DNA of 64,000 nucleotides from Minisyncoccota bacterium (GCA_028695415.1 JAQVIY010000001.1:46784-110783); one strand, 5' to 3'. Positions 3,360 to 54,096 are shown, counted from the stretch's first letter. Numbers and translations: made by a program. Notes: generated from the sequence alone by a model not told the origin.

Positions 3360-5363
3360 ATGGCAAATCATGAGAATTCTCTCGTGGCCAAATTTGGGCA
3401 CGAAAAGCGATGGGTTAATTGGAAGTACGAAGAGCGAGACGGGAAAATTACCAAGGTGCCGTATGCGGTTAACGGCAAAAGGGCTTCTAGCGTTGACTCT
3501 TCCACGTGGAGCACTTATGCCGAAGTTTCCAGGATAAGTAGCAACGTAGGGATTATCTTCACCGAGGATCAACGCCTCCTTGGGATCGATATAGACCACG
3601 TTGTTGAAGATGGTGTGGTGAGCGACGATATTCAGCGCTTTATAGACGCTGCGGAAACATATACGGAAATCTCGCCCAGCGGCACAGGCCTGCACCTGTT
3701 CTTGGCGGTAACAGAGCCTCTCTCACTGACAAAGCACAAGAAAGCGCCCTACGAGCTGTATACCTCAAAACGGTTCTTCACGGTCACTAGGAACGAGTTC
3801 ACGGACTCGCCTGTGCGGACTGTTACGCCTGAAGAGGCTCTGAGGCTTCTCGCAATCATTGGTTATCCGTGGAACAAAGATGAGCCGGAAGCGCCAGCGG
3901 CGGTGCTTGGCGGCGGTGTCAGGCCACCTGCGTTGCCGCCCATGGCCGACGAGGAGCTTCTTGAGAAGATGTTTGCCTCGAAGAATGGGCACACGATAAG
4001 AGCTCTCTACCGAGGCGATATATCGAGCTACGAAAACGACGATTCTCGTGCTGACATGGCACTCTGCGCCCATCTCGCCTATTGGACGCACAATGACGGG
4101 GCTCAGATGGAACGTATATGGCTTGCCTCAGGGCTTGGACAAAGAGAAAAGACTCAGGGCCGGAAGGATTACCGTGAGCGAACGATTGCAGCCGCGATAG
4201 AGGGTAATGCCCAAGCGCGGTCTGAGAAGAACGTGCCTCAAAAGAGCCATGGGGCACAATCGGTTGGCGCGCAAGCGATAACCATCCGTATGTCGGATGT
4301 GCAGCCTAAGCCTATTGAATGGCTGTGGTTCGGACGTATAGCTCTCGGCAAGCTCACGATCATTGCCGGAGATCCGGGGCTCGGTAAGAGCCTTACTACT
4401 ATCGACATGGCGGCAAGGGTGTCGAAGGGCTGTGCATGGCCACTCGAAGGCTCTCTAGCGCCCCTGGGTAACGTGGTATTCCTCTCTGCTGAAGACGATC
4501 CGGGAGACACAATCAGGCCTCGTCTTGACGCTGCGGGTGCGGATTGTTCGCGCGTGCATGTAATTCAGGCGATCAGGGACGCGAATGAGGAAGGCAGACC
4601 GATGGAGCGAATGTTCTCGTTCAGAAAAGATATTACCGTCCTCGAAGATCTGTTGCGTACGCTCTCGGACTGCCGTCTTCTCGTGATTGACCCTGTGTCG
4701 GCATATTTGGATGGAACGAAAAGTCACGAGAACGCAGAGGTGCGACAAGTCCTGGCTCCGCTTGCTAAGCTGGCGGCGGATTTCGGTGTCGCGGTTGTCG
4801 TGGTGCAGCACCTCAACAAAAACAGCGGAGATAACGCCATGTACCGCTCAATGGGCTCTATCGGCTTTGTTGCTGCTGCCAGAGCCGCCTATATCGTTAC
4901 CAAGGACAAGGATAACCAGGAGCGTAGGCTGGTGATGCCGATCAAAAATAATCTCGCGAAAGATACGCTCGGTCTGGCCTACTCGGTCGTCGAGGCCTCA
5001 AACAGAGCTCCTATGCTCGTGTGGGAGTCTGAGGCAGTAACAATTACGGCCGACGAAGCATTGGGCCGCTCAGACTCCGATGAAGAAAAGACAAAAATTG
5101 AATGGGCGATACAGGTGCTGGAGGTTGTGCTCGCGGACGGCCCGGTTGCGGCGACAGAAGTTAATCGTGAAGCAAGACAGGCTGGCATATCCCAAAGCAC
5201 GCTGCACCGCGCGAAGGACAAGCTAGGCGTAAAACCGAAGAAAGCCAGTTTCAAGGATGGGTGGGTATGGTCGTTGCCCAACCGCGAAGGTGTTCAGATA
5301 AGCGAAGATGCCACACCTAAAGAGGTGGGTATCTTGGGGATGGATGAACACCTTGGTGAATAG
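3360..5363 (+). CDS. Fused DNA primase/polymerase (Prim-Pol N-terminus, PriCT-like middle) plus RecA-like/AAA_25 RepA-type helicase, C-terminal wHTH. Typical of phage/plasmid/satellite replicons
   Basis: DxD motif GIDIDH; P-loop GDPGLGKS; VVFLSAEDD; LVIDPVSAYL; VVVVQHLNK. Confidence 0.8.
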   Translation: MANHENSLVAKFGHEKRWVNWKYEERDGKITKVPYAVNGKRASSVDSSTWSTYAEVSRISSNVGIIFTEDQRLLGIDIDHVVEDGVVSDDIQRFIDAAETYTEISPSGTGLHLFLAVTEPLSLTKHKKAPYELYTSKRFFTVTRNEFTDSPVRTVTPEEALRLLAIIGYPWNKDEPEAPAAVLGGGVRPPALPPMADEELLEKMFASKNGHTIRALYRGDISSYENDDSRADMALCAHLAYWTHNDGAQMERIWLASGLGQREKTQGRKDYRERTIAAAIEGNAQARSEKNVPQKSHGAQSVGAQAITIRMSDVQPKPIEWLWFGRIALGKLTIIAGDPGLGKSLTTIDMAARVSKGCAWPLEGSLAPLGNVVFLSAEDDPGDTIRPRLDAAGADCSRVHVIQAIRDANEEGRPMERMFSFRKDITVLEDLLRTLSDCRLLVIDPVSAYLDGTKSHENAEVRQVLAPLAKLAADFGVAVVVVQHLNKNSGDNAMYRSMGSIGFVAAARAAYIVTKDKDNQERRLVMPIKNNLAKDTLGLAYSVVEASNRAPMLVWESEAVTITADEALGRSDSDEEKTKIEWAIQVLEVVLADGPVAATEVNREARQAGISQSTLHRAKDKLGVKPKKASFKDGWVWSLPNREGVQISEDATPKEVGILGMDEHLGE

Positions 5364-10139: not shown

Positions 10140-10386
10140 GCCCTGCTTCGCCAAGGCTACGCAGGGCTACTTCGCTGTGTGTGCACTTCGTAGCTCCATT
10201 TCTGAATGGAGCGAAGTAGTGCCGGGAGAGGCTTGGTCACGCTTTACTAATTCGCTTCGCTCATAAGTATGCGCGACCCCGCCTCGCGACGCTCGGGGAC
10301 TCGCGTATCGCTCCGGCTTTCAAGTCTCTCACGCACGGTGCGCAGGCACCGTGCTTCCCGGCACAGCTTTCGCTTCGCTCAATCTG

Positions 10387-10467
10387 TGCCGGGAGAGAGA
10401 CTTGAACTCTCATGTCTTTCGACGAGGGGTTTTGAATCCCTTGCGTATACCATTTCGCCATCCCGGC
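10387..10467 (-). tRNA. tRNA-Leu (anticodon CAA), type II with long variable arm
   Basis: Minus strand GCCGGGA TG GCG AAATGGTATA CGC A AGGGA TTCAAAA CCCCT CGTCGAAAGACAT GAGAG TTCAAGT CTCTC TCCCGGC A. Confidence 0.75.
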
Positions 10468-26522: not shown

Positions 26523-26623
26523 CAACTGAGCGAGAGCGAAGGCGTACTGAGGCGAGCACGCCGAAGTACAGAGCGAAGTGCATGTCGAAGGGTCAACTTC
26601 CGCCATAGGAGGCGATAAGTGGA

Positions 26624-39451: not shown

Positions 39452-40759
39452 ATGAGCGCTCTGCAATTCAAAATAGAGAACCGCGCGCCCCAGAGCGGCG
39501 CGCGAACGGGCACCCTCACAACGCCGCACGGTGTTATTCATACCCCTGCGTTCACGCCGGTGGGTACTAAAGCAGATGTAAAAGGAATCTTACCCAATCA
39601 ACTGACGGCACTCGGCGCTGAGGTCGTGCTCGCCAACACGTATCATCTCTACCTCCAACCGGGCGAGAAGATTGTCGAACAATCAGGAGGATTGGCGAAG
39701 TTCATGAATTGGGTAGAACTGGGCCCCCACTCCGCCGAGGCTTCGCGGGGCAAGCCGACGATTACCGATTCCGGCGGCTTTCAGGTGTTCTCCTTGGGCG
39801 CCGCCTTCGGCAAGACTATTTCTAAATTTACGAAGGGTGAAGTGACGGAAAAAGAGGATCAGCCCCGACGCTCGTCAGACGAGGTCGGGGCCCCGACCGG
39901 AGCGTCGGGGCTCGCATATTACGATACGGACGTCGCGAGTCAGCACGGCCAACTCGCGGTGATAGACGATGAAGGAGTTACTTTCACCTCGCACCTCGAT
40001 GGTTCGCTTCACCGTTTTACTCCCGAGCGTTCGGTCGAGATACAGCACGCACTCGGCGCAGATATCTTCTTCGCATTCGACGAGTGTACTTCGCCCGTCG
40101 AACCGTACGAGTATCAGAAGGAGGCAATGGAGCGCACGCATAAGTGGGCAGAGCGCAGTCTCAAAGCGCATCGGCAGAATATCGAGGCGAGCAAGAAGCA
40201 GGCCCTCTTCGGCATCGTGCAGGGCGGGCGGCACGAAGACCTACGCAGAGTGTCCGCGCGCGAGATCGCTTCGATGGGCTTCGACGGAATCGGCATCGGC
40301 GGCTCATTTAGTAAAGAAGATATGCGGAGCGTGCTTTCTGCTGCGGTGAGCGAATTACCCGAAGAGCTCCCGCGCCACTTCCTCGGTATCGGCGAGCCGG
40401 GTGATATCCTCGAGGGTATCGCGAACGGTATGGACACCTTCGACTGCGTCGCGCCGACACGCATCGGCCGACATGGCTCTATCTATACTCGGCAAGGCAT
40501 TATTCACTTGACGGGAGAGAAGTATAAGGACGATTTCGGTCCGCTTGATCCTGAATATGCTGCGCCGGGAACTGAGGGATTCACCCGTGCCTATGTCGCG
40601 CACCTTATTCGCGCTAAAGAGATGCTCGGCTCGATGATTTGCTCGATGCACAATATGGGCTTTATCCTCAATCTCGTCGCGGGCGCACGCGAAGCGATCC
40701 TCGTCGGTCGTTTTGACGAGTATCGTGCAGATTTTGTGCATAATTATTATCAAAAGTAG
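39452..40759 (+). CDS. tgt: Queuine tRNA-ribosyltransferase
   Basis: DSGGFQ motif; zinc-binding C-terminal region; TIM-barrel Tgt family. Confidence 0.8.
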   Translation: MSALQFKIENRAPQSGARTGTLTTPHGVIHTPAFTPVGTKADVKGILPNQLTALGAEVVLANTYHLYLQPGEKIVEQSGGLAKFMNWVELGPHSAEASRGKPTITDSGGFQVFSLGAAFGKTISKFTKGEVTEKEDQPRRSSDEVGAPTGASGLAYYDTDVASQHGQLAVIDDEGVTFTSHLDGSLHRFTPERSVEIQHALGADIFFAFDECTSPVEPYEYQKEAMERTHKWAERSLKAHRQNIEASKKQALFGIVQGGRHEDLRRVSAREIASMGFDGIGIGGSFSKEDMRSVLSAAVSELPEELPRHFLGIGEPGDILEGIANGMDTFDCVAPTRIGRHGSIYTRQGIIHLTGEKYKDDFGPLDPEYAAPGTEGFTRAYVAHLIRAKEMLGSMICSMHNMGFILNLVAGAREAILVGRFDEYRADFVHNYYQK

Positions 40760-41062: not shown

Positions 41063-43114
41063 GTGACTAACTTCAAACCTCATTTTCCATACCAGCCGGC
41101 GGGCGACCAGCCCGAGGCTATCAAGACTCTTGAGAAAGGGCTCTTGAAGGGTATGCGTCATCAAACACTCTTTGGCGCGACGGGTACGGGTAAGACGTTT
41201 ACTGTTGCAAATGTCATCGCGAAGCTCGATAAGCCGACTCTTGTCCTTGCACATAACAAGACGCTTGCCGCGCAGCTCGCGCAAGAATATCGTTCATTCT
41301 TCCCCGAGAACGCGGTGCACTATTTCGTCTCCTATTACGACTACTATCAGCCCGAAGCATATATCGCGCACTCCGATACGTATATAGAGAAAGAAGCGAT
41401 GATCAACGCCGAGATAGATCGCTTGCGTCACGCGGCGACTCAAGCATTACTCACGCGCAAAGATGTCATTATTGTCGCGTCAGTGTCCGCAATCTACGGG
41501 CTCGGTTCGCCTGAAGAGTATGAGAAAGTGCACGTAAAGATACAGAAACAGGAGACCGTCGAAGGAGGCAGGGGTGGATTGATACGGAAGCTCGTCGGTA
41601 TTTACTTTGAACGTACGAATGCAGATCTTAATCCCGGACAGTTGCGCGCCATCGGCAACTCGCTTGAGTTCATGCCGGTAAATGAGCGTGTGATGTATCG
41701 CGTCGCGTTTGATGGCGATACGGTGGCACGCATTGATCAGCTTGACCCGGTCTCGCGCGCAAAAGTTGCGGAACTTGAGTCGGTCTTCGTCTTCCCGGCG
41801 AAGCACTTCGTGACAAATGAAGACGAGCGCGCCCGCGCCATCGAGGACATCAAGCTTGAACTCGACGAACAGCTCGCGAAGTTCAAACGCGAAGAGAAGC
41901 CCTTGGAAGCTGAGCGTCTGAAACGCCGCACGCTTCACGACCTCGCTCTTATCCGCGAGCTCGGGTATACGACGGGTATCGAGAATTACTCGCGGCATTT
42001 CGATGGGCGCAAAGCAGGAGAACCCCCCTTCACGCTCCTGAGTTATTTCAAACGTTGTGACAAGGATTTCCTCACCGTGATAGACGAGTCGCATGTGACG
42101 GTATCGCAGCTCGGCGGGATGTATGCGGGCGACAAATCGCGCAAGGATACACTCATCGAGTACGGCTTCCGGCTCCCCTCGGCGCGTGATAATCGTCCGC
42201 TCACGTTTGAAGAGTTTGAAGGGCGTACTGGACAGGTGCTCTACACGAGCGCTACGCCGGGGCCGTATGAAAAAGCACACTCTGAACAGATTGTTGAACA
42301 GGTTATCCGCCCGACTGGTCTCCTCGATCCTGAACTTACCGTGCGTGGTGTGATCGAGACGAAAGAGTATAAGGGTCAGATAGCAGACTTTATTGAAGAA
42401 GCGGGAAAGGTCATACAGAATGGCGGCAGAGCGCTCGCGACGACGCTCACCAAACAGATGGCAGAAGATCTTGCATCGTTCCTGCGCGAGAAGGGTATCA
42501 AGGCGGAATATCTCCACTCTGACGTGAAGACGATAGACCGTATTGATATTCTCACGAAATTCCGCAAAGGCGAGTTCGACATTCTCGTCGGCGTAAATCT
42601 CCTTCGTGAGGGGCTCGATCTTCCCGAAGTCGAGCTCGTGGGTATCCTCGACGCCGACAAAGAGGGCTTCCTCCGCAGCGAGACTTCACTTATCCAGACA
42701 ATCGGTCGTGCGGCGCGCAATGTGCTCGGGCGCGTCATTCTCTATGCCGATGTGATGACGGGCTCACTCGAACGCGCGATAGGGGAGACGAATCGCCGTC
42801 GCGAAAAGCAGATTGCTTATAACCAAGAGCATGGCATTACCCCGACAACCATAAAGAAAGAAATACACGATATCGCTGCGTCGATGCGTACCGAGCATCA
42901 AAAGACGGTGGACGACCTGCTCGCGCTCGACACAATTGCCTACAAAGATGACCCGAAAGCGTTCATCACGCAGAAGCGACTTGAGATGGCCGAAGCCGTA
43001 GAGAGTCTGGACTTCGAGACCGCCGCCCTCATCCGCGATGAGATCTATAAGCTCGAAGGCACCGGTCCCAAGGCAAAAAAGCCCCGCACCCGCAAGCCGT
43101 TGTCAGGAGGTTGA
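41063..43114 (+). CDS. uvrB: Excinuclease ABC subunit B
   Basis: GATGTGKT P-loop, DESH box, C-terminal UVR domain. Confidence 0.9.
   Translation: MTNFKPHFPYQPAGDQPEAIKTLEKGLLKGMRHQTLFGATGTGKTFTVANVIAKLDKPTLVLAHNKTLAAQLAQEYRSFFPENAVHYFVSYYDYYQPEAYIAHSDTYIEKEAMINAEIDRLRHAATQALLTRKDVIIVASVSAIYGLGSPEEYEKVHVKIQKQETVEGGRGGLIRKLVGIYFERTNADLNPGQLRAIGNSLEFMPVNERVMYRVAFDGDTVARIDQLDPVSRAKVAELESVFVFPAKHFVTNEDERARAIEDIKLELDEQLAKFKREEKPLEAERLKRRTLHDLALIRELGYTTGIENYSRHFDGRKAGEPPFTLLSYFKRCDKDFLTVIDESHVTVSQLGGMYAGDKSRKDTLIEYGFRLPSARDNRPLTFEEFEGRTGQVLYTSATPGPYEKAHSEQIVEQVIRPTGLLDPELTVRGVIETKEYKGQIADFIEEAGKVIQNGGRALATTLTKQMAEDLASFLREKGIKAEYLHSDVKTIDRIDILTKFRKGEFDILVGVNLLREGLDLPEVELVGILDADKEGFLRSETSLIQTIGRAARNVLGRVILYADVMTGSLERAIGETNRRREKQIAYNQEHGITPTTIKKEIHDIAASMRTEHQKTVDDLLALDTIAYKDDPKAFITQKRLEMAEAVESLDFETAALIRDEIYKLEGTGPKAKKPRTRKPLSGG
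43058..43098 (+). repeat. Direct repeat copy 1 (uvrB 3' end, 41 bp); matches 43895..43935 at 38/41
   Basis: ggcaccggtcccaaggcaaaaaagccccgcacccgcaagcc vs ggcaccggtcccaaggcaaagaagccccgcactcggaagcc. Confidence 0.8.
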
Positions 43115-51283: not shown

Positions 51284-51321
51284 CCGCAGTGGAGACGCCC
51301 CTCCCTGCGGTTTTATTTTTT
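51284..51321 (+). terminator. Rho-independent terminator after ddl
   Basis: ccgcag..ctgcgg stem plus ttttatttttt. Confidence 0.55.
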
Positions 51322-51347
51322 GAAAGAGGTGATAGAATGAGACATAT

Positions 51348-51420
51348 GGGCCGTTAGCTCAGTTGGTAGAGCACCTCATTTGCAATGAGGGGGTCGCAGG
51401 TTCGAATCCTGTACGGTCCA
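51348..51420 (+). tRNA. tRNA-Ala (anticodon UGC), G3:U70
   Basis: GGGCCGT TA GCTC AGTTGGTA GAGC A CCTCA TTTGCAA TGAGG GGGTC GCAGG TTCGAAT CCTGT ACGGTCC A. Confidence 0.85.
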
Positions 51421-51620
51421 CAAAACAAAGGAGCCGGATGCGGAAGCATTCGGCGACTATTGTTTTGTAGGGCCGTACAGGATTCGAAGAGACGGAGCGG
51501 GCACCTGTCCAGCAGGACAGGTCGCGAGTCGCGGACACGACCAAAGTCGAGCGACGGCGAGATTTTGAGTCGCGGAAGAAAAGCGTAATCGCGGTCCTGT
51601 ACGGTCCACAAAAACAAGAA
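51421..51620 (+). repeat. tRNA-Ala trailer insert (174 nt) ending in a direct repeat of the tRNA 3' end (tcctgtacggtccacaaaa at 51595..51613), plus an internal inverted copy at 51463..51492
   Basis: Direct 19-nt repeat of 51405..51423; inverted near-copy ttgttttgtagggccgtacaggattcgaag. Confidence 0.7.
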
Positions 51621-51705
51621 GCGGAGCGCCTATGTTTTTGTAGGATGCCGAAGTGCAAGTAACTTTGGCGCCACAAAATCCGGACAACTATGGCATACTG
51701 CATAT

Positions 51706-52182
51706 ATGCCGCAGAAGAAAACCCTTATCGAGAAAATGACGACGGGAGTGGGGTCGGTGCCTTCGCTTGTCGTGCACACCCTGGTATTTATAGGGTTCTT
51801 TGTCGCCGCGTGGTCGGGAACTATCGGCTGGGACACGATGCTGCTCGCGCTCACGACTATCGTCTCGCTTGAGGCGATTTATCTCGCAATATTCATCCAG
51901 ATGTCGGTAAACAGGCACGCTGCAGAGCTTGCCGAGGTGAGTGAGGACGTCGAGGATATTCAGGAAGATGTTGACGAGATCCAAAAGGATGTCGATGAGA
52001 TTCAGAAAGACGTCGATGAGATTCAGGAAGATGTGGAAGATATCCAAGAGGATGTCGAGGAGATTAGCGATGAGGACGAGACCGATGATGAGCACGATAA
52101 AAAACAGACCGCTGCGCTTGAACAGCTCACGCAGGATATCCATCGCGTGCTCGCCGATCTTGAGCAGTTGAAGAGAAAGTAA
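51706..52182 (+). CDS. DUF1003 family membrane protein with acidic C-terminal heptad repeats
   Basis: WDTMLLALTTIVSLEAIYLAIFIQMSVNRHAA resembles the DUF1003 core; six 21-bp tandem repeats at 51943..52066. Confidence 0.6.
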   Translation: MPQKKTLIEKMTTGVGSVPSLVVHTLVFIGFFVAAWSGTIGWDTMLLALTTIVSLEAIYLAIFIQMSVNRHAAELAEVSEDVEDIQEDVDEIQKDVDEIQKDVDEIQEDVEDIQEDVEEISDEDETDDEHDKKQTAALEQLTQDIHRVLADLEQLKRK

Positions 52183-52224
52183 ATCTGGGAATCCAAGAGG
52201 ATATCTGGTATGGTTAGGTGTATC

Positions 52225-52298
52225 GCGCTCCTAGCTCAGCTGGTTAGAGCGTTCGCCTCACACGCGAAAGGTCAGGGGTTCGAGTCCCTTGGAGCGCA
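52225..52298 (+). tRNA. tRNA-Val (anticodon CAC)
   Basis: GCGCTCC TA GCTC AGCTGGTTA GAGC G TTCGC CTCACAC GCGAA AGGTC AGGGG TTCGAGT CCCTT GGAGCGC A. Confidence 0.85.
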
Positions 52299-52426
52299 CA
52301 AGAAGACTGGGAAACCGGGCTTCTTGATGCACTAGGGGACTCGAAGGCCGGAGGCTAACGAGCCGAGGCGGGGTCGCGCAGATTTCCAGCAGGAAATCAT
52401 GTGTGACCGAGTCCCTTGGAGCGCAC
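52299..52426 (+). repeat. tRNA-Val trailer insert (108 nt) ending in a perfect 19-nt direct repeat of the tRNA 3' end (cgagtcccttggagcgcac at 52408..52426 = 52281..52299)
   Basis: Contains conserved motif cgaaggccggaggctaacgagccgaggcggggtcgcgcag. Confidence 0.75.
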
Positions 52427-52443
52427 TGGGAGGTGTTCTGTGT

Positions 52444-52514
52444 CGGGCCGGAGTATGCCGGTAGTACGCACGCTTCGGGTGCGTGTAGACCGGGTTCAAT
52501 TCCCGGCGGCCCGA
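52444..52514 (+). tRNA. tRNA-Pro (anticodon CGG), C1:G72
   Basis: CGGGCCG GA GTAT GCCGGTA GTAC G CACGC TTCGGGT GCGTG TAGA CCGGG TTCAATT CCCGG CGGCCCG A. Confidence 0.75.
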
Positions 52515-53257
52515 CAAAGAACATCTCCGAATAATACAGAGAGTTTGTTTTCTGGATAAATATCGTTTGGATAAATCTCAACGAGTCTATAACCAAGCTT
52601 TTTGGCAAGCGAACGCTTTCTTTTGATATTCTTGTCGTAAACTTCTTGTACTCCAGCGAGTCCGAAAAACTCGACTAGGATATCGAAATGTATCTTGAAA
52701 TCAGCCGTCAGTCTCGTATCCCCATATGGATAATTTCGTTCGTGTAGAATACAGTTGCTCGTAAACCAATCGTCGATAATCTTTTCGGTGAACGAATCGC
52801 AATCATGTCCGTCTGTGGCTGTGAATTTTTTCGCAAACAGAACAGGATTCGTCTCAAAGCCCGCTTGTTTGATGGCGTTATTCCAGCTTCCGAAGTTTGC
52901 AGCAAAAGCATCCCACTGATTGAACTCACGCTTGAGTGGAATGCGTCCGTTTAGTACATAAAAATCTCGGATCTTCTTGAGAAGGTCTTCACTCGAGTAC
53001 TTCTTTCGATAGGGTGCAAGACGTTCTCCGACAATCTTTTTTTCTGTTGCGCTCATCCGATGGTAATTCCTTCGATTCTCAATCGCCTGTTTTTGCAGAA
53101 GAGAAATCTGAACATCTTTGGTCCACTGATGTGCGATGCTTATGCTTACGCTTAGTTGCTTTGCTATTTCGCGATGCGTCAATCCTTCAGAACGGAGGAA
53201 GCGCGCGTTCTCTTTAGTCGAGGCAGAATGGCGGACTCCGTTTCTTGCTTTCAGCAT
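52496..53257 (-). CDS. HTH-domain protein with C-terminal Vsr/DUF559-like PD-(D/E)xK endonuclease domain; homing-endonuclease-like selfish gene in an AT-rich insert between tRNA genes
   Basis: N-terminal LTHREIAKQLSVSISIAHQW (HTH). C-terminal TADFKIHFDILVEFFGLAGVQEVYDKNIKRKRSLAKKLGYRLVEI matches the DUF559 pattern D..h.IE.DG...H....D..R...L...G..V.R. Low GC. 3' end overlaps tRNA-Pro. Confidence 0.55.
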   Translation of the reverse strand: MLKARNGVRHSASTKENARFLRSEGLTHREIAKQLSVSISIAHQWTKDVQISLLQKQAIENRRNYHRMSATEKKIVGERLAPYRKKYSSEDLLKKIRDFYVLNGRIPLKREFNQWDAFAANFGSWNNAIKQAGFETNPVLFAKKFTATDGHDCDSFTEKIIDDWFTSNCILHERNYPYGDTRLTADFKIHFDILVEFFGLAGVQEVYDKNIKRKRSLAKKLGYRLVEIYPNDIYPENKLSVLFGDVLCRAAGN

Positions 53258-53283
53258 ACTTAAATTATAACGTGGTATCCTGC

Positions 53284-53357
53284 GTCATATAATCGGGCTA
53301 TCGTATAATGGTAGTACGCATGGCTGGGGGTCATGCAGCCTGGGTTCGATTCCCAGT
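53284..53357 (+). tRNA. tRNA-Pro (anticodon GGG), CCA encoded
   Basis: CGGGCTA TC GTAT AATGGTA GTAC G CATGG CTGGGGG TCATG CAGC CTGGG TTCGATT CCCAG TAGCCCG A CCA. Confidence 0.85.
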
Positions 53358-53542
53358 AGCCCGACCAAAAACGTTCGACGTTTTTTCGGGCTACAGCAAG
53401 CGTAGCTTGCGACGGGAATCGAAAGCCGGAGCGATGTTCGGCTAGCAAGCCGAACCGCGAGGCGGGGCCGAGAAAATCCGTGAGTGACGACGAACGGATT
53501 ATTCGTGGCCGAAACCGTATTCGGGGTTCCCAGTAGCCCGAC
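53358..53542 (+). repeat. tRNA-Pro trailer insert (169 nt) ending in a 16-nt direct repeat of the tRNA 3' end (ttcccagtagcccgac at 53527..53542 = 53340..53355)
   Basis: Contains conserved motif cgaaagccggagcgat...cgcgaggcggggccg. Confidence 0.75.
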
Positions 53543-53660
53543 AAATAAGCTTCGTGTTAGAATCGTCCATGCAGTAATTTGTATCGGGCCTGTACGACAG
53601 CGTACATACCCTTCGTTCGGAGCAAGAGAATATGCAGACACATTCTCTTGTCCTCACTTC

Positions 53661-53733
53661 GGGCCTGTAGCTCACTTGGTAGAGCGCGTCATTCGCATTG
53701 ACGAGGTAGGGGGTTCGATTCCCCCCAGGTCCA
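53661..53733 (+). tRNA. tRNA-Ala (anticodon CGC), G3:U70
   Basis: GGGCCTG TA GCTC ACTTGGTA GAGC G CGTCA TTCGCAT TGACG AGGTA GGGGG TTCGATT CCCCC CAGGTCC A. Confidence 0.85.
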
Positions 53734-53805
53734 CAAAATAACTAGAGTACTCACGACTATATTTTGTGAGAGTCCTGAAGGTATTCCTGAAGGGGTCCAT
53801 AAAAA

Positions 53806-53838
53806 CAGCACCCGCCGGAAGGCGGGTGCTGTTTTTTG
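53806..53838 (+). terminator. Rho-independent terminator closing the tRNA cluster
   Basis: cagcacccgcc ggaa ggcgggtgctg followed by tttttt. Confidence 0.65.
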
Positions 53839-53847
53839 CACGATTAG

Positions 53848-54096
53848 TTAGGAGACGTGCGGGCCGATGAGCTTTGCCATCTCGAACATCGTCACTTCGC
53901 CTTTGCCGAAGATAGCCTTCAGCTTGTCATCTGCGAGGATGTTGCGCTTGTTCGCCGGGTTTTGAAGATCGTGCTTCTTGATATAGACCCAGAGCTGCTT
54001 CACCACTTCGGTGCGAGGCATAGGGCCCTTGCCCACGACCGCTTCAAGGTCTGCGGAGAGGGTAAGAGGTTTCGATAATGCTGCATTTATTGCCAT
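53848..54096 (-). CDS. SWIB/MDM2 domain protein
   Basis: 82 aa; motif VVKQLWVYIKKHDLQNPANKRNILADDKLKAIFG typical of bacterial SWIB. Confidence 0.7.
   Translation of the reverse strand: MAINAALSKPLTLSADLEAVVGKGPMPRTEVVKQLWVYIKKHDLQNPANKRNILADDKLKAIFGKGEVTMFEMAKLIGPHVS

Follow-up and report, generated by a model that had tools for sequence, protein, structure and literature searches.

Probable small insertion elements with a putative structured RNA core behind tRNA genes of Patescibacteria

Four inserts behind tRNA genes of a Minisyncoccota bacterium

What are the short inserts that stand directly behind several transfer RNA (tRNA) genes of a Minisyncoccota bacterium and are closed by a second copy of the tRNA tail which they follow? 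They were noticed in a 64,000-nt stretch of its genome (GCA_028695415.1, JAQVIY010000001.1: 46784-110783; hereafter the window, with positions counted from its first letter), and a preliminary description had offered two explanations: deletion remnants of one integrase family, or miniature elements or structured RNAs that form a family not yet described. The second gained ground through compensatory base changes, empty versus filled sites, several copies per genome and the lack of an Rfam match. On balance, comparison of the copies favors small (about 90–230 nt) non-autonomous insertion elements of Patescibacteria that encode a structured RNA and belong to a family of which no description was found.

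Eight tRNA genes were identified in the window with ARAGORN, with four copies of the family among them. At these four loci the order on the tRNA strand was the same: the tRNA gene, a hairpin, a segment (X') that is antisense to the part of the tRNA between the T-loop and the 3' end, a conserved core and a direct copy, X(down), of the identical tRNA segment, whose original in the gene is termed X(up). In the family as a whole, X' is antisense to the last 5–22 nt of the gene immediately upstream. The inserts were 127–188 nt long, with repeat periods of 188, 127, 177 and 167 nt for the Ala(UGC), Val, Pro(GGG) and Leu(CAA) loci, respectively. In the following list R1 and R2 are covariance models made from relatives (R2 being the broader one and run on the window with filters off); loci outside the window carry L numbers.

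51348..51420, plus strand: tRNA-Ala(UGC), host of element 1 (ARAGORN; Rfam 72.6 bits)
51421..51469, plus: hairpin of element 1, from the tRNA end to X', with a terminator-like stem at 51433-51454 (repeat analysis)
51470..51488, plus: X' of element 1, 19 nt, 95% complementary to 51401-51419
51489..51594, plus: diverged core of element 1, GACGGAG, hairpin, CGAGTCGCGG, long hairpin with GAGCGACGGCGA apex (R2)
51595..51644, plus: X(down) of element 1 plus hairpin copy (19/19 repeat); native sequence then resumes as in L247
52225..52299, plus: tRNA-Val(CAC), host of element 2 (ARAGORN, Rfam); X(up) is 52281-52299
52300..52326, plus: element-borne hairpin of element 2 with GAAA loop (absent at the empty site of L247; fold prediction)
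52329..52345, plus: X' of element 2, pairing with the tRNA-Val end, several G.U pairs
52347..52407, plus: canonical short-form core of element 2, GCCGGAG-GCUAACGAGC-CGAGGCGGG-GUCGCG...hairpin...UGUGAC (R1, R2)
52408..52426, plus: X(down) of element 2, equal to 52281-52299 (19/19)
53294..53367, plus: tRNA-Pro(GGG) with encoded CCA, host of element 3 (ARAGORN, Rfam); X(up) is 53350-53365
53368..53423, plus: A/U-rich hairpin and split X' of element 3 (inverted repeats; direct reading)
53386-53394, plus: X' part a of element 3, TCGGGCTAC (inverted-repeat match)
53395-53413, plus: internal hairpin of element 3 at the acceptor/T-stem junction (direct reading)
53414-53423, plus: X' part b of element 3, GGGAATCGAA (inverted-repeat match)
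53425..53509, plus: long-form core of element 3, GCCGGAG ... CGAGGCGGGGCCGAG ... GTGAGTGACGACGAAC apex ... GTGGC (R1, R2)
53510..53542, plus: optional small hairpin module of element 3, CGAAACCGTATTCGGGG, then X(down) at 53527-53542, equal to 53350-53365 (16/16)
10386..10467, minus strand: tRNA-Leu(CAA), host of element 4 (ARAGORN, Rfam)
10219..10385, minus: element 4 (motif, repeats, R1, R2)
10365-10356, minus: X' part a of element 4, TGTGCCGGGA, preceded by the loop GAGCGAAGCGAA (inverted repeat)
10355-10331 and 10330-10319, minus: internal hairpin and X' part b, GAGAGACTTGAA, of element 4 (inverted repeat)
10317-10236 and 10230-10219, minus: core and X(down), CTCTCCCGGCAC, of element 4 (R1, R2; direct repeat)

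The direct repeats of tRNA 3' ends reported in the preliminary description were recovered for Ala(UGC) (51407-51425, the last 19 nt plus trailer, equal to 51595-51613, 19/19), Val (19/19) and Pro(GGG) (16/16), and the Leu(CAA) locus has one as well (10386-10397 equal to 10219-10230, 12/12). At the Ala(UGC) locus the repeat extends to 28 nt at 89% identity, running on into the duplicated hairpin, which is repeated at about 85% past X(down) (51614-51644). An inverted copy of the tRNA end, previously ascribed to the Ala insert alone, is present there (19 nt at 95%) and in the three other inserts too: 15–24 nt at 75–80% in Val, 13 nt at 92% plus 10 nt at 100% in Pro, and 14 nt at 93% plus 12 nt at 100% in Leu. 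In the latter two, a small hairpin splits X' exactly at the acceptor/T-stem junction. X' of element 1 is antisense to the stretch from the T-loop through the acceptor 3' strand of tRNA-Ala and, by direct reading, contains GGGCCGT, which gives a G.U pair at the G3:U70 position.

The sequence motif said to be common to the Val, Pro and Leu inserts, searched as CCGGAG-N6-36-GAGGCGGGG, occurred three times in the window against 0.02 expected, and none of 100 shuffled sequences reached three; the Ala(UGC) insert, left out of that group originally, also has a diverged version, GACGGAG...CGAGTCGCGG. Model R1 recognized the Val (91.5 bits, E=2e-25), Leu (43 bits) and Pro (34 bits) inserts, and R2 scored 77.4 bits (E=7e-22), 59.4 bits (E=3e-16) and 58.8 bits (E=5e-16) for Val, Leu and Pro, respectively. 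The Ala(UGC) insert was the fourth-best R2 match in the 64 kb (51476-51589, 20.7 bits, E=4e-4). All four inserts match R2 and are therefore members of the family, and the common fold looked for among them is a covarying core. For element 2 the predicted minimum free energy was -68.5 kcal/mol (z=-7). Weak R1 or R2 matches elsewhere in the window (for example, at 39849-39919 and 41083-41162; 17 bits or less) look like ordinary hairpins.

Two small modules accompany some of the elements. An optional hairpin, CGAAA-GCGTACTCGC-GGTTC, lies between the core and X(down) at 53510-53526 of the window and just after GTGAC in L135, L156 and L210, elements that are otherwise different. Copies of the loop motif GAGCGAAGCGAA stand at 10251-10263 and 10369-10381 within the Leu element, and L140 is among the other members that have it. 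The trailer of tRNA-Gln (26524-26600, plus strand), with its repeats of AGAGCGAAG / ACTGAGCGA, could represent either an element in decay or a loop module that it has in common with the family.

Distribution, hosts and neighbouring genes

A first scan of one genome per species with a pattern of 17 specified bases was too loose and gave mainly chance matches in high-GC genomes: seven of the 120 loci listed were genuine copies, six of which came from named Patescibacteria (three from Saccharibacteria and one each from Parcubacteria, Minisyncoccia and 'Patescibacteria group'). A tighter pattern applied to metagenomes produced at least 120 loci. About 100 copies were judged genuine. The elements thus recur beyond the window, in more than 120 further copies in public Patescibacteria DNA. 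Among the about 100 copies, 58 were located 19–250 nt 3' of a tRNA gene on the same strand, representing more than 15 isotypes, and none 3' of a tRNA gene on the opposite strand. The sequence following the core resembled the tail of the respective tRNA (mean local score 13.3 vs 4.8 for shuffled sequences; 10 or more in 36 of the 58 tRNA-linked copies), and the sequence preceding it resembled the reverse complement of the same tail (mean score 9.8 vs 4.9). An exact direct repeat of at least 10 nt was present in 44 of 100 copies, with a period of 87–315 nt, in all but one case not above 227 nt.

The boundaries cluster at preferred positions and define two types. In type A the boundary is at the T-loop, and in type B at the 3' terminus, with only 3–7 nt duplicated. 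For X(down) the usual start is 20 nt short of the tRNA end (20 of 31 scorable cases); X' stops opposite position -22 in 22 of 43, with a second mode at the acceptor end. Direct reading placed the T-loop boundary in palindromic TTCGAA or TTCRANT. X' as a sense copy of the tRNA 5' strand was considered and ruled out, given that non-palindromic T-loops (Leu, TTCAAGT) appear in antisense.

The same architecture was found after the last codons and the stop codon of the ribosomal protein genes rplL (L128, L210, L237) and rpsI (L212). In a further subclass, type C, the 5' hairpin is fixed and belongs to the element itself; its loop reads GAAUACYUGGA, and the junction GCAAG and the core follow. Elements of this type are inserted cleanly within short duplicated gene fragments adjoining an intact gene, as follows.

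L134: 5' fragment of 5S ribosomal RNA (rRNA), reading GGT, element, CACACCC
L198: 3' part of 5S rRNA
L023 and L200: antisense to 5S rRNA
L193 and L221: 5' fragment of tRNA-Ser
L184: 5' end of a coding sequence

The label 'tRNA-targeting' used in the preliminary description is consequently too narrow for the family, which also uses rplL, rpsI, 5S rRNA and tRNA 5' fragments. Hosts of this kind (tRNA, 5S rRNA, rplL, rpsI) rank with the genes most strongly expressed in a cell.

Tandem or nested arrays occurred in L123, L158 and L180. In L180 (about 4500-5000, minus strand of the locus) at least five cores of three subfamilies are nested 3' of one tRNA-Gly, and cores with the 5' flank from one tRNA and the 3' flank from another suggest recombination between elements. 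Another small recurring module, GGTGTAC-N-G-NN-CCTGTAAGG-NN, a short hairpin with the loop TGTA, was seen in three unrelated contigs (L045 7581-7610, L108 about 2830-2860, L228 404-430), where it adjoins partial tRNA copies or truncated cores.

The family was not recognized by the databases consulted. Rfam 15 at the gathering threshold returned only tRNAs and one LOOT RNA for the whole window, and at E up to 10 it gave no intron, ribozyme or other family for the inserts at 51300-53900; the weak tmRNA_permuted and mascRNA matches appearing at this relaxed cutoff only reflect tRNA-like sequence. Models of the known small self-cleaving ribozymes (hammerhead, hairpin, twister, twister-sister, pistol, hatchet, hepatitis delta virus-like) did not match, no sigma-70-like promoter was found within the elements, and a literature search that included the motif sequence retrieved no description of the family.

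A protein partner was sought among the open reading frames (ORFs) around 97 copies, for which all those of 120 aa or more lying up to 4 kb away were clustered. No integrase, transposase or other recurrent ORF family was found at these 97 loci up to 4 kb on each side; the largest cluster comprised six loci and appeared housekeeping-like by eye, without annotation. The window itself contains an ORF of 253 aa (52496-53257, minus strand) between tRNA-Pro(CGG) and tRNA-Pro(GGG), which carries the homing-endonuclease-associated HNH_repeat domain (PF18780, E=6e-11) and, judged from its translation, an N-terminal helix-turn-helix-like stretch. The two Pro tRNAs are only 18 nt apart in L247, so this ORF was itself inserted into the tRNA array, and the lack of a recurrent ORF near the 97 copies means that it is not a general partner of the elements.

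These results bear directly on the first explanation, that the inserts are deletion remnants, consisting of an attachment-site pair (attL/attR) and one arm, of integrase-bearing islands or prophages in tRNA 3' ends. Direct repeats of the T-loop-to-3'-end segment flank the inserts just as tyrosine-integrase elements produce them, and in both cases the upstream tRNA remains intact, its tail being supplied or duplicated. The agreement goes no further, and we regard this explanation as largely refuted, with very little probability left to it. Full-length versions carrying an integrase were sought in the DNA around about 100 loci and not found; long ORF-bearing versions bounded by the same repeat amounted to three weak or unrelated cases, none of them convincing. 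The elements are short (90–230 nt) and the length duplicated ranges between 3 and about 50 nt, whereas one integrase family uses one fixed site; this family uses more than 15 tRNA isotypes, and the same core stands after rplL and rpsI, in 5S fragments and at a coding 5' end. Every copy furthermore holds an additional antisense copy of its own host tail, and the folded core shows base-pair covariation with G.U pairs, unexpected for arm-type protein-binding sites. Two pattern scans of viral contigs gave chance matches only, none of which scored with R2.

Fold of the conserved core

The 36 short-form copies align without gaps, and their core forms a three-way junction composed of P2, an internal loop, the hairpin Pa, a GGG junction and P3, with the X'/X(down) flank helix as P1. 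P2 is a 3-bp helix (GCC/GGC) that encloses the variable Pa and a GGAG/CGA internal loop; the latter could form tandem G.A pairs with one bulged G. P3 (GUCGCR...YGUGAC) is extended by a hairpin and has an invariant G.U as well as a bulged A located 8 nt from the 3' end.

In the 36 ungapped sequences Pa was paired to 100% and P3 to 96.6%, with 11 of these pairs changed on both sides. The covariation score was 0.437 compared with 0.168 for shuffled alignments (0 of 500 reached the observed value) and at most 0.18 with slid partners. The invariant columns were fixed by the search pattern, and R1 was therefore used to find copies independently of the latter. It gave 129 matches in 100 loci, including 28 copies without the search pattern, and these showed compensatory variants of P2: ACC/GGT, GTC/GAC, GGC/GCC, GAC/GTC and CGC/GCG. 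Element 1 of the window has GAC/GUC in place of GCC/GGC, the same P2 variant as in L180 and L162. In an alignment of 62 sequences all four helices covaried and 88% of the cells were paired vs 63% after shuffling, although this alignment leans towards the structure because it was fitted to the model.

In all 97 elements the sense strand had the better predicted fold (-51.2 vs -40.8 kcal/mol for the antisense strand), and the flank helices contained 207 G.U pairs vs 20 A.C mismatches. The folding bias and the G.U excess point to RNA, and the conserved part is accordingly modelled as a structured single-stranded nucleic acid, most likely RNA.

A fold of this kind may also be made by DNA. The elements could be relatives of the IS200/IS605 palindrome-associated transposable elements (PATE) or of the repetitive extragenic palindromic elements (REP/REPIN), moved in trans by an HUH (Y1) transposase that acts on the lagging-strand template, the core being a DNA fold recognized by the enzyme. 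Like these and like miniature inverted-repeat transposable elements (MITEs), the family is small, non-autonomous, multi-copy, hairpin-rich, polymorphic and often found at gene 3' ends. Subterminal hairpins are present at both ends, one subclass lacks a target duplication (L134, L023), the strand asymmetry and the tolerated G.T pairs fit a structure of top-strand DNA, and co-orientation with the tRNA could reflect the direction of replication. Nevertheless, we rate this alternative as clearly unlikely. There is no conserved 4–5-nt target at the left end as in IS200/IS605 elements, the insertion points following GGT, GAG, GTT and CAC by direct reading; most copies have long duplications, and target-derived antisense and sense flanks of up to 20–50 nt are unknown in these families. 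The core itself looks RNA-like, with its 3-bp helix closing a tandem G.A loop, its invariant G.U, bulged A and purine-rich junctions, and no TnpA, RAYT or TnpB-like gene recurred within up to 4 kb of the copies. In contrast to MITEs, there are no shared terminal inverted repeats (the inverted flanks differ from copy to copy and match the local host gene) and the target duplication has no fixed length.

If the core is RNA, it might be a small catalytic one. According to such a mini-intron or ribozyme scheme, X' would serve as an internal guide pairing first with the host tail (like P1 of group I introns or the pairing of intron- and exon-binding sites, IBS-EBS, of group II introns) and then with the downstream copy (like P10); once both repeats were cut at the same position and the ends ligated, the element would leave as an RNA of unit length, possibly circular, and the host transcript would be restored; the same reaction run backwards, with a later copying step into DNA, would lead to insertion. 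The geometry is suggestive in several ways: the guide pairs with the 5' exon directly before the insertion point and the strand is always that of the host RNA, as in both intron groups; the unit length equals the repeat period; the conserved bulged A lies 8 nt from the conserved 3' end GUGAC; one subclass is inserted cleanly without duplication; and the favored hosts are the most abundant cellular RNAs. This scheme is still very unlikely in our estimation. No Rfam 15 ribozyme or intron model matched even at E up to 10, and a core of 60–100 nt is far below the size of the group I or II catalytic cores. The guide reaches 22 nt and is matched by the downstream duplicate too, unlike in introns, and the host has no need of splicing, since the upstream tRNA is complete and X(down) has decayed in several loci. 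Patescibacteria tRNA group I introns are situated in the anticodon loop, unlike the inserts described here, and group II introns were reported to be absent from Patescibacteria (PMC13011429), which removes that source of reverse transcriptase.

Empty, occupied and decayed sites and their interpretation

Syntenic contigs were located through homologues of the DUF1003 protein encoded at 51706-52182. This protein is 100% identical to one annotated 'Candidatus Pacebacteria bacterium', as fits the origin of the window from a Patescibacteria metagenome-assembled genome. L247 has the same gene order as the window (UvrC, Ddl, tRNA-Ala(UGC), DUF1003, Val, Pro, Pro, Ala) and lacks the elements. Its tRNA-Val gene ends in ...GAGCGCAC, after which come A, GGGAGGTGTTCTGTG and tRNA-Pro; these flanks recur in the window with 127 nt inserted between them, and 3' of element 2 the native spacer GGGAGGTGTTCTGTG leads into tRNA-Pro(CGG) as at the empty site. 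The Val, Pro(GGG) and Ala(UGC) sites of L247 are all empty, and in the window the native flanks resume exactly after X(down). Since the spacer follows X(down) directly at the Val site, the first hairpin belongs to the insert and is not a native terminator.

The Val site of L244 is occupied by a type B element (a hairpin with CUGC loop, GTGCG, the core and ACAC), which is an independent insertion. In L246 the core is missing from the palindrome (X, hairpin, X') that follows tRNA-Val, and tRNA-Pro(CGG) is followed by a remnant with only the 3' end of the core (...GTGACC) and a truncated X(down); both are decay products. The length of the duplication was 0 in L134, 3–4 nt in L244, 12–19 nt in the window and about 49 nt in L240, and it includes the native terminator where one exists, as in L240 (49 nt) and at the Ala element of the window. 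X(down) was degenerate in L121, L186, L161, L228 and L194 with the upstream tRNA intact, and the upstream gene is therefore the functional one; X(down) as a functional 3' exon was ruled out by the same decay.

The window contains one possible case of decay.

53734..53804, plus strand: possible core-less remnant after tRNA-Ala(CGC), with a weak 10/11 copy of GGTCCACAAAA

The repeat previously claimed at this site exists, but it is weaker than stated (53728-53738 vs 53794-53804, 10/11 instead of 13/14) and the core is missing. With its hairpin (53732-53768) and a degenerate antisense-like stretch, the site is at most a decayed core-less remnant, resembling the core-deleted remnants of L246.

The unit is present or absent at orthologous sites, occurs in several copies per genome and is always oriented as the upstream tRNA. 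It decays by loss of the core or of the downstream copy, and the upstream tRNA is kept intact.

This behaviour has to be set against a role in the service of the host, namely a cis-acting 3'-end RNA module on highly expressed transcripts, in which X' either sequesters the upstream tail or pairs with X(down) as a decoy under the control of a protein- or ligand-bound core, thereby tuning 3' processing, stability or termination read-through. The arrangement X / X' / X with two mutually exclusive predicted pairings of similar energy, the covarying core kept across distant Patescibacteria, the strict co-orientation with the host gene and the preference for the most highly expressed genes (tRNA, 5S, rplL, rpsI) would all suit such a module. 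What makes it doubtful is the pattern of occurrence: presence or absence at three sites between close relatives, a different subtype at one site, decayed copies, tandem and nested arrays, decay of X(down) in several loci, copies located in gene fragments or antisense to 5S, and only about half of the tRNAs of the window carrying an element.

If the insertion elements favored above are real, their life cycle could be as follows. An element without its own promoter would be read through from strong host promoters, those of tRNA, 5S rRNA and ribosomal-protein genes, and X' of the transcript would pair either with the real host tail or with the downstream copy; in the predicted folds P1 and the X(up):X' pairing alternate with similar energy. 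Pairing with the downstream copy would close P1, allow the core to fold and free the tRNA to fold, and insertion is proposed to be harmless on this account. At tRNA hosts P1, by its construction, would be about 12 bp of acceptor stem stacked on T-stem, complete with the discriminator base, and a hairpin often stands at the 7/66 junction. As P1 mimics this stack, tRNA-processing enzymes could release the element RNA: RNase P, RNase Z and the CCA-adding enzyme could excise and finish it like a tRNA. Spread might proceed through a single-stranded or circular intermediate (X, hairpin, X', core) that recombines with the cognate gene through X, giving direct repeats of variable length. The variable repeat length and the partial gene copies with an element beside an intact gene suggest recombination of this kind, and that the hosts are abundant RNAs may be a sign of an RNA stage.

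Parts of this cycle have counterparts elsewhere. Short interspersed nuclear elements (SINEs), retrozymes and R2-type elements share the dependence on host promoters, the association with host genes for tRNA, 5S and rRNA, a 3' part that is conserved and structured, short units between direct repeats and occasional tandems; the family differs in being bacterial and in having no known partner reverse transcriptase, no poly-A or LINE-like tail and no known ribozyme motif. In tRNA-like structures (mascRNA, viral ones, the tmRNA domain) an acceptor and T-stem helix with a discriminator base and often a 7/66 branch is likewise mimicked, here that of the neighbouring tRNA, but in the elements the T-loop is replaced by a 60–100-nt junction and the helix is not tRNA-like at the rplL, rpsI and 5S hosts.

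A more far-reaching interpretation, which we put forward as improbable, regards the core as a small RNA of a new kind, catalytic or acting as a guide scaffold, which X' would programme to a chosen RNA or DNA end; the element would then be a bacterial, retargetable mini-intron or retro-element. It would insert right after any guide-paired sequence, rewriting guide and duplicate from the new host, and would be excised as a unit-length, possibly circular RNA, independently of proteins or with host enzymes. In the case of tRNA hosts it would yield a minihelix resembling a tRNA, to which CCA could be added, and the Ala minihelix, with its G.U at the 3:70 position, could even be aminoacylated.

Several points weigh against the insertion-element interpretation preferred here. 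No enzyme recurred within up to 4 kb of the copies, and the empty sites could in principle stem from precise deletion through the direct repeat. A host-specific antisense and sense copy in each element has no precedent, and one subclass has its own fixed 5' hairpin without target-derived flanks. The core is conserved across deeply divergent classes of Patescibacteria, for which a host function is equally possible. As to its RNA nature, the G.U preference and the strand asymmetry are also expected for a single-stranded DNA structure of the top strand, and P1 was only about 59–72% paired across copies, so that its closure is not universally maintained.

The family would add to Rfam 15 a widespread structured RNA that is apparently specific to Patescibacteria (Candidate Phyla Radiation, CPR), and it would represent a type of miniature insertion element whose flanks, one antisense and one sense, are written from the host gene. 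To our knowledge, no known transposase, integrase or intron mechanism predicts such flanks. The elements bear on how the ultra-small CPR genomes tolerate parasites inside tRNA arrays, on tRNA 3' maturation where tRNA genes lack an encoded CCA, and on annotation, in which the duplicated tails and tRNA-like helices can be mistaken for attachment sites, pseudo-tRNAs or terminators. If X' acts as a guide, they would offer a natural example of retargetable insertion beside chosen RNA genes.

Some neighbouring features of the window were recorded in addition. A LOOT RNA (Rfam RF03000), an orphan structured RNA, is located at 1919-2040 on the plus strand (87.9 bits vs a gathering score of 46.4). The DUF1003 membrane protein (51706-52182, plus strand) has C-terminal DVxEIQxDV heptad-like repeats and showed 50–83% identity among the 120 best matches listed, many of them from Paceibacteria and always in the same tRNA array. 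Finally, a conserved intergenic block lies 5' of tRNA-Ala(CGC) at about 53560-53640 of the window, at 3780-3840 in L247, at 4020-4100 in L244 and partly in L246. The block, approximately AATCGTYC...GGGCCTNTACG...CGTANA...CCCTCGTTCGG, contains an inverted repeat and could be a promoter region or another small RNA.

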